NCBI RefSeq assembly: GCF_013122565.1
Contig: NZ_CP053258.1
Reading direction: 5' to 3' (one strand)
Length of the DNA: 64,000 nucleotides
From: Escherichia coli
GTDB taxonomy: Bacteria; Pseudomonadota; Gammaproteobacteria; Enterobacterales; Enterobacteriaceae
Within the stretch, counting starts at the first letter, position 1; the number at the start of each line of letters is the position of its first letter. This document shows positions 40,985 through 42,905 of this stretch, in pieces. Position numbers and translations under genes: made by a program. The notes beneath the pieces were generated by a model. It saw only the letters and a program-made list of their open reading frames with translations, ran no database searches and was not told where the DNA came from.

Positions 40985-41100
40985 AACTCCTGAGCAGGTG
41001 GCACTACGCCGCTTTCACAGGAGTTCTGAATGCTGGTGCTTTCTGTATGGCATAACCATGCCTCTAACGGTTAAGTGCTTGCAGCACATGTTGCGGATCA
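40985..41100. repeat. about 105-bp direct repeat, copy A (overlaps 3' end of antitoxin gene)
   Basis: aactcctgagcaggtggcactacgccgctttcacaggagttctgaatgctggtgctttctgtatggcataacc…, nearly identical over about 70 bp to copy B; internal inverted repeat aactcctg…caggagtt. Confidence 0.7.
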
Positions 41101-41354
41101 TTGGCAATCGCTCGCAGCAAAGCCTTTGCAGGCCCGGTCGGTGAACGTCGCCCCTGCTCCCAGTTACGCAACGTGTCTACACTTACAGAAATAAGATCGG
41201 CAAATTTAGATTGTGACAACCCTGAAGCGCGGCGTATTTCTTTGATTTTCATAGCATCAACTTCAAAAGTCCGCGAAGGCTGTCGCGTTCCTTCAATAAT
41301 TTCATTCATCTGGGCCATGCTGTGAGTCAACCGCTCAAAAAGTGCCTTATCCAT
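41064..41354 (-). CDS. HTH (XRE-family) antitoxin, HigA-like
   Basis: 96-aa ORF with HTH (…IRRASGLSQSKFADLISVSVDTLRNWEQGRRSP…); starts 1 nt after the stop of the toxin ORF. Confidence 0.7.
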   Translation of the reverse strand: MDKALFERLTHSMAQMNEIIEGTRQPSRTFEVDAMKIKEIRRASGLSQSKFADLISVSVDTLRNWEQGRRSPTGPAKALLRAIANDPQHVLQALNR

Positions 41355-41666
41355 TTACCACCTCGTATTTAACAACCGGAGCATTGCTTTTTCCTGGGGA
41401 GACAGATCATCTTTAATACCCTTACGATAAATAAGCAGTAATCTGATCTCATAATGTTTAACCTGATGAAAGTAAATAACCCTGACACCAGCACGTTTCC
41501 CCTTTCCTCCTGACACCCATCGAATCTTTCTTAACCCACCAGTTTCAGGTATTACCTCACCATAGTCAGGATTCAAGGCCAGGAAAAACTGAAAACGACT
41601 GAATTCATCGTCGGTCAGCAGTTTTTGAACATCTTCAGTAAAAATTTCCGTTTCGATGAAGAGCAT
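41355..41666 (-). CDS. RelE/ParE-superfamily (HigB-like) type II toxin
   Basis: 103-aa ORF upstream of the HTH antitoxin (toxin-first order typical of higBA modules); …GVRVIYFHQVKHYEIRLLLIYRKGIKDDLSPQEKAMLRLL… pattern. Confidence 0.65.
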   Translation of the reverse strand: MLFIETEIFTEDVQKLLTDDEFSRFQFFLALNPDYGEVIPETGGLRKIRWVSGGKGKRAGVRVIYFHQVKHYEIRLLLIYRKGIKDDLSPQEKAMLRLLNTRW

Positions 41667-41787
41667 AATTATACGCCATTGGCTTAGAGTAACAATCCTT
41701 TTTGTACGTCATTGACGTACCCTTGAAACCACTAGCTTACTGATAGTGCTCCAGCAAAACCACGTCTCTGCCGGGTTTGTCTTTACA

Positions 41788-41807
41788 TTTGCGAGGCGCT
41801 TTCCAGA
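41788..41807. promoter_or_regulatory. conserved 20-bp upstream motif, copy 3 (between toxin gene and esterase gene)
   Basis: tttgcgaggcgctttccaga, 19/20 identical to copies 1 and 2; about 120 bp upstream of the toxin start on the minus strand. Confidence 0.4.
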
Positions 41808-41882
41808 TTTTTCACGCCCGTGAATTTCCCGGTATCCATCCAGCAAAAACGGGTGTATAAAACTGTACATTCATACAGCAAA

Positions 41883-42803
41883 ATGAGTTCTACTATGGCA
41901 CTGGAAAAAGGAATTGCAGAGTTAGTCGAAGAGTTTATCGCTGCGGGTCGCCCCTCATCGCGTCAACAAAGTATTGCGCAGCGCAGGGAGGGCTATATCG
42001 CCAGCGCTGTCCTTGCGGGTGAGACAGAAACGCGGGTAGATATTCAGACTATCGAACTTGAAGGGATGACCTTACGAATAGTGTCGCCGCTTAATGCCCC
42101 GACATTACTCCCGACGATAATTTATTACTACGGTGGCTGTTTTGTTAGCGGCGGGTTCGCAACTCACGACAACCAGCTGCGCCAGTTAGCCTATTACGGG
42201 CAATGTCGTGTTATTGCCGTCCAGTATCGGCTGGCACCGGAACATACTTTCCCCGCCGCCCATGATGATGCGCAACGAGGTGCAGAATTAGTCTGGCAAC
42301 ACGCCGAACGACTCGGCGTTGATAAACAACGGATAACTCTTGCCGGTGACAGTGCGGGCGGACATCTGGCGCTGGTAACTGCTTTGCGATTAAAGCGTGC
42401 TGGCGAGTGGCAACCGGCACAACTCATCTTAATTTATCCTATGCTTGATGCGACTGCGCATTTCGAAAGCTACATACGCAATGGTCACGATTACATCATC
42501 ACACGCGACACTTTACTGAGCGGCTTTGAGATGTATCTGCCAGGCATTGAACGCAGGCATCCTGAAGCCAGCCCTCTTTGGCGCGATGATTTCAATGGCT
42601 TGCCACCTGTACATATCATTACCGCTGAATACGACCCACTTTGCGATGAAGGTGAAGCGTTGTATCACCGCATGACAGGGCAAGGAGTGCAATGCACCTG
42701 CCAACGCTACCTTGGCGTTATCCACGGATTTTTTCAGTTAGGTGGTATCAGTGAGGCTGCGCGATCGGCGCTGCGGGATGTGGCCTGGAGAGCGGGAAGG
42801 TAA
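41883..42803 (+). CDS. alpha/beta-hydrolase fold-3 esterase/lipase
   Basis: ORF with oxyanion-hole motif YYYGGCFVSGG and nucleophile elbow GDSAGG (GxSxG); start at ATG 41883 or 41895. Confidence 0.75.
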   Translation: MSSTMALEKGIAELVEEFIAAGRPSSRQQSIAQRREGYIASAVLAGETETRVDIQTIELEGMTLRIVSPLNAPTLLPTIIYYYGGCFVSGGFATHDNQLRQLAYYGQCRVIAVQYRLAPEHTFPAAHDDAQRGAELVWQHAERLGVDKQRITLAGDSAGGHLALVTALRLKRAGEWQPAQLILIYPMLDATAHFESYIRNGHDYIITRDTLLSGFEMYLPGIERRHPEASPLWRDDFNGLPPVHIITAEYDPLCDEGEALYHRMTGQGVQCTCQRYLGVIHGFFQLGGISEAARSALRDVAWRAGR

Positions 42804-42905
42804 CTCCTGAGCAGCGGCCACTATGCCGCTTTCACAGGAGTTCTGAATGCTGGTGCTTTCTGTATGGCTTCGCCATGCCCCTCGCGGCTAAGTACCTGCA
42901 CACAT
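42802..42905. repeat. about 105-bp direct repeat, copy B
   Basis: aactcctgagcagcggccactatgccgctttcacaggagttctgaatgctggtgctttctgtatggcttcgcc…, see copy A. Confidence 0.7.

Follow-up and report, generated by a model that had tools for sequence, protein, structure and literature searches.

Origin of the direct repeats around a predicted HigB-2/HigA-2 pair and an esterase gene in Escherichia coli

The HigB-2/HigA-2 type II toxin-antitoxin (TA) system of Vibrio cholerae (PDB 5JA8, 5JA9, and 5JAA) is encoded in a superintegron, with the toxin gene placed first, an abutting antitoxin gene, and an operator-like palindrome upstream. Genome segments may also be joined by mechanisms that need little sequence identity: homology-facilitated illegitimate recombination and microhomology-mediated joining, reportedly described by de Vries and Wackernagel in 2002 and in related work, combine one homologous anchor with a microhomology of 3-10 nt. 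Homology-facilitated illegitimate recombination is documented mainly in naturally transformable species.

We analyzed a window of 64,000 nt from E. coli, in which an initial annotation had described two near-identical direct repeats flanking a HigB-like toxin gene, an HTH antitoxin gene, and an esterase gene. This description was borne out (Table 1): the two copies, termed A and B, are 87% identical, with starts separated by 1,817 bp. We propose, with a probability of about 0.6, that the repeats mark the seam joining two old alternative haplotypes of the fdhE-fabY region and are not the boundary of a mobile cassette.

Table 1 Features of the locus, with positions in the window.
Feature	Position	Strand	Description
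Spacer U	40470..40984		between yiiE and the repeat; left flank common to copy A (T3, composite) and to the single B-like copy (O157-type)
Repeat copy A	40985..41088		about 79 nt 3' of nadS and the final 25 coding nt of nadS/higA-2
Hairpin 1 of copy A	40985..41025		8-bp outer stem AACTCCTG/CAGGAGTT plus inner GC stem; 38 nt past the nadS stop
Second, small hairpin of copy A	41045..41061
Antitoxin gene	41064..41354	-	HTH-XRE, NadS family / HigA-2 homolog, 96 aa
Toxin gene	41355..41666	-	HigB-2 homolog (RelE superfamily), 103 aa
Perfect palindrome GTACGTCA-T-TGACGTAC (GTACGTCATTGACGTAC)	41704..41720		upstream of higB-2; likely HigA-2/NadS operator (predicted)
Conserved motif TTTGCGAGGCGCTTTCCAGA	41782..41808	+	upstream of the esterase gene; in four genera
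LexA-box-like AACTGTACATTCATACAGCA (CTGT-N8-ACAG)	41861..41880		15 nt before the esterase ATG
Esterase gene	41895..42803	+	Abhydrolase_3 / hormone-sensitive-lipase family, 302 aa
AACT seam	42802..42805		esterase end GGTAACT joined to AAAACT/CCTG of the relic haplotype; 4-nt microhomology (proposed)
Repeat copy B	42802..42905		probable decayed allele of the copy A element; nadS stop codon gone, 1-nt deletion
Hairpin 1 of copy B	42802..42842		aactcctg...caggagtt, as in copy A
Second, small hairpin of copy B	42862..42878
Island with predicted SopB-like CX5R phosphatase gene	42941..45200	-	ORF 42972-44825, 617 aa

The toxin-antitoxin pair and the esterase gene

The toxin matches HigB-2 chains with E-values of 1.1e-19 to 6.8e-19 over residues 2-99, and its match to the Pfam RelE family (PF06296) lies below threshold. 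The antitoxin matches HigA-2 (E 1.8e-8) and HTH_3 (E 7.5e-10) and scores 60.7 bits against the NadS model, the cutoff of which is 60. Both proteins are homologous to their V. cholerae counterparts, and the genes form an operon of the same order, with the toxin gene abutting the antitoxin gene and an operator-like palindrome upstream; by these similarities the pair is a predicted HigB-2/HigA-2 type II TA system. In contrast to the V. cholerae system, the E. coli pair is not part of a superintegron, but is chromosomal and syntenic across genera of the Enterobacteriaceae; it adjoins a divergently transcribed esterase gene, and the NCBI name of its antitoxin is "NadS family". PADLOC made no defence-system assignment. 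The palindrome is kept in Citrobacter and Salmonella, both with the TA pair, and is missing in Enterobacter, which is without the pair; it is likely to be the operator of HigA-2/NadS.

The esterase gene is preceded by the motif TTTGCGAGGCGCTTTCCAGA, paralogous copies of which lie upstream of yiiE and yiiF. A reading of CTGGAAARCGCCTCGCAAA as a sigma-54 promoter (GG-N10-GC) was dropped because the Enterobacter ortholog has TTG instead of TGG and because the motif goes with the esterase gene, on the other strand. Closer to the start codon, the sequence CTGT-N8-ACAG (41863-41878) is one of just two such sites in the 64 kb and is kept in four genera, which we regard as a putative conserved LexA (SOS) box.

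The gene order fdhE-nadS-higB2-esterase-fabY is found in Citrobacter and in Salmonella salamae, the order being as in E. coli, and Enterobacter carries the esterase gene alone at the syntenic site. Across genera, amino-acid identities are 86-87% for NadS, 65-71% for HigB-2, and 76-78% for the esterase, and the TA genes are of equal length. As fdhE and fabY flank the trio in both Citrobacter and S. salamae, the comparison shows that the TA pair and the esterase gene are ancestral and were not acquired as a cassette. The larger insertion between yiiE and yiiD, in which the block had been placed, is real as extra sequence relative to K-12, but with an ancestral trio it largely represents the ancestral state, and K-12 carries a 3.9-kb deletion. 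The literature on NadS and on yiiE/yiiF/yiiD yielded nothing on the structure of the locus. For K-12, one SELEX table includes a site of the RpoS holoenzyme in the yiiD-yiiE interval.

Structure and distribution of the repeats

Copies A and B align without gaps over 99 nt (40985-41083 and 42802-42900), or over about 104 nt if a 1-nt indel is allowed, and share an identical run of 44 nt; the similarity thus exceeds a short common palindrome, and a 66-nt core had zero chance matches in shuffled sequence. The inverted repeat aactcctg...caggagtt noted in the initial annotation is present in each copy, as part of hairpin 1. The left edge is sharp, at AACTCCTG, and the start of copy B falls within the esterase stop codon. 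At the right edge, secure homology runs to near 41089 and 42905, so that the extent given earlier for copy B holds and that for copy A, to 41100, is too long; further similarity is weak and non-significant. When the right flank of copy B (42906-42971) was compared with the higB operator and with more of nadS, 26 of 500 and 64 of 500 shuffles, respectively, scored as well, and a further decayed extension to 42940, seen in the comparison with the metagenomic contig L023 only, is possible.

Each copy comprises about 79 nt that follow the antitoxin gene and contain two hairpins, and the last 25 nt of that gene, whose stop codon is at 41064-66 in copy A. Copy B had been viewed as a degenerate copy of a gene end, and this is what we find: it has lost the stop codon and its orphaned coding stub is about 27% decayed, whereas its non-coding left part is about 94% like A, as is the remaining shared flank. 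By direct reading, 4-5 mismatches fall in the first ~67 nt and 11 in the last ~40 nt.

Among 5,426 complete E. coli genomes, the repeat was found in 3,369, at one or two places in each and always at this locus. No further copies were found within the window, and none on plasmids or in other species. A scan for exact 22-mers, with one genome taken per species, returned only E. coli, besides a contig of 445 nt from a Micromonospora assembly, probably a contamination. An Rfam scan of 38000-47000 gave no match at E ≤ 1 for the repeats (40900-43000) and only sub-threshold REP-like matches near 39700. With at most two copies per genome at a single locus and no match to a curated family, a dispersed or structured repeat family (REP/BIME, ERIC, or MITE), which had been offered as one explanation, was rejected.

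The same census distinguishes several haplotypes. In about 2,309 genomes the locus reads U-A-nadS-higB2-esterase-61 nt-fabY (termed T3; the junction of the esterase gene with the 61 nt and fabY was counted 2,309 times), about 731 genomes possess the stub and the island only, as U-B-island-fabY (termed T2), and 329 genomes, identified by the junction of the esterase gene with copy B, show the composite arrangement of the window; the island is present in 1,063 genomes. Detailed comparison of 16 E. coli loci revealed that O157-type genomes have the arrangement of the window less 1,817 bp, with one B-like copy exactly at the position of A. The earlier suggestion of recombination or rearrangement between the repeats therefore stands insofar as the presence or absence of the block and one repeat coincides exactly with the repeat boundaries, but its acquisition part does not, given the synteny in Citrobacter and S. 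salamae. At the junctions (slash), T3 genomes read GGTAACT/TCGG, O157-type genomes CAAAACT/CCTG, and the window GGTAACT/CCTG. No homology to the composite was found for the 61 nt after the esterase gene in T3; T3 therefore did not arise from the composite simply by deletion. Copies A and B of one genome are not homogenised, and across strains the same left-part variants recur in both contexts, which fits A and B being alleles.

The neighbouring island and its SopB-like gene

The island borders copy B and carries a gene for a 617-aa protein, the true start of which is probably M14, giving 604 aa. The protein contains the CX5R motif CKS[AG]KDRT and a SopB-like predicted fold, as do SopB/SigD of Salmonella, IpgD of Shigella, and INPP4A/B; CKSAKDRT is the catalytic motif of INPP4 (PMC3248162). 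GCKSAKDRT is invariant in 23 homologs, including residues C512, D517, and R518. An AlphaFold model based on the 23-sequence alignment (pLDDT 86.6) has SopB as its best structural match (8JZL_A, E 8.2e-7, probability 1.0, TM 0.37/0.45), followed by SidP and SidF, and we classify the product as a predicted SopB-like CX5R phosphatase. Its sequence identity to SopB is only about 12%, with a TM-score of just 0.37-0.45, and the gene differs further in having no linked secretion system. Pfam and NCBIfam returned no match for the protein, and no Pfam family, including Pfam IpgD, was found for 10 distant homologs either. A RefSeq "transposase" label covers the C-terminal half of the gene and is without family support. 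The gene is a pseudogene in most E. coli and intact in the strain of the window.

The left boundary of the island, GAATTCTGATAA, is common to the window and to a divergent Escherichia-like lineage represented by the metagenomic contigs L023 and L024. Their flanks are about 92% identical to E. coli, and their island is at most 78.5% identical to that of any E. coli genome; they show the layout fabY-island-nadS stub with the identical boundary and have neither the TA pair nor the esterase gene.

Origin of the repeats

In the sequence of events that we favor, E. coli first placed yiiF-yiiE-U between fdhE and nadS of the ancestral fdhE-nadS-higB2-esterase-fabY order, as the arrangements compared show, to give T3. 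The SopB-like island would then have replaced the 5' part of nadS, higB2, and the esterase gene, leaving the 3' nadS stub with its downstream hairpins; the resulting T2 junction is observed, and a stub left in this way makes copy B an allele of copy A at one chromosomal site. DNA of one haplotype would later have recombined into the other, through one crossover in the homologous flank and a second, illegitimate join at AACT, linking the esterase stop region (GGTAACT) to the sequence just left of B (AAAACT/CCTG). The segment from A to the esterase gene would thereby have come to lie directly before the one from B to the island, which is the composite, with two alleles of one site now in tandem. 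Judged from the junctions, the window most likely represents two haplotypes joined at this 4-nt microhomology. AACT is common to both parental junction contexts, although a match of 4 nt, at about 1 in 256, is weak statistical evidence. One homologous anchor plus a short microhomology, as in homology-facilitated illegitimate recombination, would yield just such a seam; unlike in the cases described for that process, the E. coli event is reconstructed from present-day sequences, in which donor and recipient are indistinguishable. The locus also resembles gene-remnant scars at replacement hotspots, by its decayed 3' gene stub at the edge of a replaced segment, and RecA-dependent short-repeat deletion loci, by its ~100-bp direct repeats with an identical core around a presence/absence polymorphism. 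It would differ from target-site or replication-slippage duplications in that A and B are allelic versions of a single site now lying in tandem. The 44-nt identity is long enough for RecA-dependent recombination, which may delete the TA-esterase block and restore a T2-like locus.

Some observations speak against a simple form of this scheme. The island tree groups one T2 genome (L010) with composites (L012-14) at 98.7-98.9%, and island alleles among composite genomes are up to 3.9% apart, which suggests that composites are old or reshuffled and that some T2 genomes may stem from composites by deletion between A and B. The proposed direction of events is tentative. In L023, the stub and functional nadS are 90% identical over 42 nt, compared with only 77.5% identity for the island gene, which is odd for a single ancient event, but the sample is small.

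The same observations bear on an in-place duplication, in which the 1.8-kb unit from A to the esterase gene was tandemly duplicated in T3 by an AACT/AACT join, most of the second copy then gave way to the island, with B as the remnant, and all T2 genomes arose by recombination between A and B. It predicts an identical AACT junction, and removal of one unit from the composite gives T2 exactly; in the island tree an allele from a T2 genome falls within those of composites, and the 44-nt identical core permits homologous deletion. Nevertheless, the tandem intermediate is absent among the 5,426 genomes, where the repeat occupies at most two places and always in the composite layout. Moreover, a 1.8-kb tandem duplication is unstable, so that the second event must have come quickly, and the stub and island of L023, without the TA pair, call for yet another deletion. 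We consider this duplication rather unlikely, and copy B is better explained as an allelic relic of the island haplotype than as an in-place duplicate of A. A site-specific insertion of the TA-esterase block as a mobile cassette with att-like repeats appears very improbable. Its presence or absence exactly at the edges of direct repeats would fit such an element, TA pairs are often mobile, and higB2-nadS homologs reside on Salmonella, Enterobacter, and Pantoea plasmids. In these plasmid pairs, however, similarity is limited to the coding sequence (query position 92 onward) and does not include the downstream element, and the repeat itself is confined to one E. coli locus, with no copy on plasmids or in other species. 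In addition, the block occupies the orthologous site in Citrobacter and Salmonella, no recombinase, integrase, or transposase lies in or beside it, and copy A belongs to the antitoxin gene itself.

It is also doubtful that the ~79 nt of non-coding sequence function as an RNA or terminator element, being a small structured repeat kept by selection in both contexts and not a passive scar. Copies A and B each fold into two hairpins somewhat more stable than shuffles (z -1.5 to -3.0), the outer stem and 26-nt spacer are near-invariant across 20 copies, and conservation between A and B is far higher in this part than in the coding stub. However, the left-part divergence between A and B, about 6%, equals the allelic diversity of the adjacent spacer U (4-6%), so no extra constraint is needed, and the inner stem varies one-sidedly, by indels, with zero compensatory pairs; Rfam gave no match at the repeats. 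On the minus strand, hairpin 1 of copy A is followed by UUUUGC, which makes it a weak candidate terminator: the stem-loop is present, but the U-tract amounts to four U on the nadS strand after A and none after B in the window, and the scan called no terminator. A broader and rather speculative extension of the favored haplotype seam would hold that two ancient, mutually exclusive haplotypes (HigBA-2 with an SOS-controlled esterase versus a SopB-like phosphoinositide phosphatase) predate the split of E. coli from a sister Escherichia and persist as a trans-species polymorphism under balancing selection, the repeats of the rare composite acting as a reversible switch that sheds the TA-esterase block.

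In summary, the repeat pair would be an ordinary genome scar, and the locus is easily misread: compared with K-12, the block looks like a repeat-flanked insertion, yet it is ancestral and K-12 carries the deletion. It may illustrate how direct repeats that mimic cassette boundaries can arise from the relic of a gene end together with a microhomology join. The locus also provides leads in a HigBA-2 ortholog that is uncharacterised and carried by about half of E. coli, an esterase gene with a conserved putative LexA box, and a gene for a predicted SopB-like CX5R phosphatase.

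The repeat pair and its specificity

Pairwise alignment bears out the two direct repeats that the initial annotation had described as flanking a toxin/antitoxin/esterase block: they are roughly 104 nt long and show 87% identity across 99 ungapped nt, a likeness running beyond the hairpin palindrome, at a start-to-start distance of 1,817 bp. The left edge is sharp, with both copies starting at AACTCCTG, and near-identity over the first ~70 bp was confirmed (4-5 mismatches in the first ~67 nt). Over the last ~40 nt there are 11 mismatches in 40 positions and a 1-nt deletion, and secure homology ends near 41089/42905, not at 41100 as first proposed. 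The 66-nt repeat core had no matches in shuffled sequence. As had been noted, copy A holds the 3' end of the antitoxin gene and each copy contains an inverted repeat; for both, folding predicts one long hairpin with imperfect pairing (AACTCCTG...CAGGAGTT) and one small hairpin, with energies modestly better than those of shuffles (z -1.5 to -3.0).

Coordinates of features in and around the repeat-flanked block (window positions).
Feature	Position	Strand	Remarks
REP-like segment	39654-39736		between fdhE and yiiF
TTTGCGAGGCGCTTTCCAGA / TTTGCGAGGCGYTTTCCAGA motif	40111-40137; 40550-40576; 41782-41808		upstream of yiiF, yiiE, and the esterase, respectively
Repeat copy A	40985-41088		includes last 25 nt of antitoxin ORF (stop codon 41064-66)
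Antitoxin, HTH-XRE, 96 aa (nadS)	41064-41354	-	'NadS family' (NCBI) and HigA-2 match
Toxin, HigB-2 homolog, 103 aa (higB2)	41355-41666	-	V. cholerae HigB-2 structures, E 1e-19
Top sigma-70-like higB-2 promoter	41668-41695	-	TTGTTA-16-TATAAT
Perfect 17-nt palindrome	41704-41720		divergent intergenic region
LexA-type box AACTGTACATTCATACAGCA	41861-41880		CTGT-N8-ACAG
Esterase	41895-42803	+	Abhydrolase_3 / hormone-sensitive-lipase type
Repeat copy B	42802-42905		decayed counterpart of copy A
617-aa ORF, probably 604 aa	42972-44825	-	orphan protein, CX5R motif; probable true start 44786

A dispersed family of structured repeats, offered earlier as one explanation, is ruled out by copy number: among 5,426 complete E. 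coli genomes, 3,369 contain the repeat, each once or twice and always between yiiE and fabY. Rfam gave no match at the repeat, and a conserved 22-mer from it is absent from the representatives of all other species. Plasmid homologs of the toxin-antitoxin (TA) pair have only the coding sequence in common, the ~79-nt downstream element being missing. A 445-nt contig (L006, coverage 0.76) of a Micromonospora craterilacus assembly carries the E. coli-specific repeat sequence, almost certainly as E. coli contamination. The segment between fdhE and yiiF gave sub-threshold Rfam matches to naRNA4 and ES036; because these models derive from REP elements, it is probably an ordinary REP/BIME element.

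Resident genes and ancestral order

The toxin gene comes first and abuts the antitoxin gene, an arrangement like that of HigBA systems; the antitoxin barely reaches the NCBI 'NadS family' cutoff and matches HigA-2 with E 2e-8. The palindrome is conserved in the genera that have the TA pair and probably serves as operator for the antitoxin. The -10 element of the top higB-2 promoter ends 1 nt before the annotated ATG. This promoter and that start codon are incompatible, so the true position of one or the other must be different. The LexA-type box, which overlaps a -10 element (TATAAA), lies 15 nt ahead of the esterase start codon and is kept upstream of the orthologous esterase in four genera (including Citrobacter, Salmonella salamae, and Enterobacter); this conservation suggests that the esterase, missing from K-12, may be SOS-regulated. 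The TTTGCGAGGCGCTTTCCAGA / TTTGCGAGGCGYTTTCCAGA motif ahead of the esterase is also conserved in four genera, and a sigma-54 reading of TTTGCGAGGCGYTTTCCAGA was considered, then dropped. The regions upstream of yiiF and yiiE (40061-40160 vs 40500-40599) share 72% identity across 100 nt, and it seems that these RHH genes, together with their leaders, arose long ago by tandem duplication; their proteins show a weak likeness to the 'LexA regulated protein' YbfE family.

Gene order is fdhE-nadS(96 aa)-higB2(103 aa)-esterase-fabY-dtd-yihY in Citrobacter and Salmonella enterica subsp. salamae, and fdhE-esterase-fabY in Enterobacter. Identities to the window proteins are 86-87% for NadS, 65-71% for HigB-2, 76-78% for the esterase, and 90-94% for FabY/FdhE, and esterase orthologs are 75-83% identical across Enterobacteriaceae. 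The shared order, the orthologs, and the conserved palindrome show the TA-esterase block to be the ancestral resident of this interval and the K-12 reference state to be derived. The acquisition suggested by the initial annotation is thus rejected, the block being at the orthologous position in Citrobacter and S. salamae. A site-specific mobile cassette is ruled out by the absence of a recombinase and of other sites, together with this orthologous position.

Haplotypes of the interval and origin of copy B

There are four main haplotypes. T3 (yiiE-U-A-nadS-higB2-esterase-61 nt-fabY, where U is the spacer between yiiE and the repeat) lacks copy B and the 617-aa gene, and its junction occurs in 2,309 genomes. 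T2, the O157:H7 type (yiiE-U-one B-like copy-617-aa gene-fabY), corresponds to the window with exactly 1,817 bp removed; its ~731 genomes were calculated as 3,369 minus 329 minus 2,309, in agreement with 1,063 island-carrying genomes. The composite, which is the window layout, has an esterase-to-copy B junction common to 329 genomes. K-12 is a deletion state, lacking exactly 40858-44721, and what is left of the 617-aa gene is an N-terminal stub of 35 codons, annotated as a pseudogene. No counterpart of the 61 nt of T3 was found in the composite, so T3 is not its deletion derivative. An alternative spacer U with a 279-nt ORF (loci L008, L012-14) is seen in T3 and composite layouts alike, and in some strains a DUF6708 gene pair lies between the two RHH genes (locus L007, 2042-3655). 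Recombination has made a mosaic of the entire interval.

The 617-aa protein contains a GCKSAKDRT motif that is invariant across 23 distant homologs; in INPP4 phosphatases this is the catalytic motif, of CX5R type (PMC3248162). The AlphaFold model of the protein is confident (pLDDT 86.6), with the Salmonella effector SopB as best match (8JZL, E 8e-7) and Legionella SidP and SidF next; neither Pfam nor NCBIfam has a family for it. The gene is intact in the window and split in O157:H7; most E. coli have it in split or truncated form. Many RefSeq genomes label the C-terminal half of the split gene 'transposase' (L001 4772-5686, L009, L010, L012-L015); no transposase family supports this label, which looks like a propagated misannotation.

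The gene is nearly restricted to Escherichia. A protein with 73% identity is encoded on two metagenomic contigs from a divergent Escherichia-like lineage (L023 and L024), whose flanks share ~92% identity with E. coli; the best match of their island in complete E. coli genomes is at most 78.5%. The boundary at which this island starts, GAATTCTGATAA, is also that of the window (42941). Directly before it come a 42-nt nadS stub with 90% identity to window 41097-41138 and the repeat segment GAGTTCTGAAYGCTG..CTTTCTGTAT; the TA pair and esterase are absent from both contigs. By this layout, the 'nadS stub + island' haplotype is old, the island having presumably taken the place of nadS(5' part)-higB2-esterase.

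In E. coli T2, the stub (copy B) occupies the exact T3 position of copy A and adjoins the same spacer U, indicating that A and B are alleles of one site. Copy B had been taken for a degenerate duplicate of a gene end; the frame and stop codon are indeed gone, but an allele of the copy A site is favoured over a duplicate. The left part of A and B is ~6% divergent, U itself 4-6% between haplotypes, and decay of the orphaned coding stub amounts to ~27%, an unevenness explained by A and B being alleles of which one has an orphaned stub. A and B are not homogenised within composite genomes, and left-part variants are common to A-context and B-context copies from different strains.

Probable formation of the composite

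The junctions read GGAAGGTAACT/TCGGACC in T3, CATAACAAAACT/CCTGAGC in T2, and GGAAGGTAACT/CCTGAGC in the composite. One join within the shared AACT, combined with one regular crossover in flanking homology, either U/yiiE or fabY, would produce the composite and would automatically turn A and B into direct repeats with the join as their left edge. The junction is identical in all 329 composites, which fits a single event, and we assign this fusion of haplotypes a probability of about 0.6. Alternatively, the 1.8-kb unit could have been tandemly duplicated and its second copy replaced by the island, T2 arising later via A x B recombination; a T2 island allele (L010) does group with those of composites (L012-14), and divergence among composite islands reaches 3.9%, while the cassettes of composites form a cluster at 99.1% or more. 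However, that route requires an unstable intermediate, seen in 0 genomes, and we consider it unlikely. A selected RNA or terminator element at the repeat is possible, though not needed: the repeat and the adjacent spacer are equally conserved, stem variation is one-sided, and the U-tract is weak.

With an identical core of 44 nt, the repeats may plausibly allow the block to be lost by RecA-dependent deletion. The initial interpretation was partly right, its observation being confirmed, but the feature, an ordinary scar left by recombination at a locus that is hypervariable in E. coli, was read backwards because K-12 served as the mental reference.
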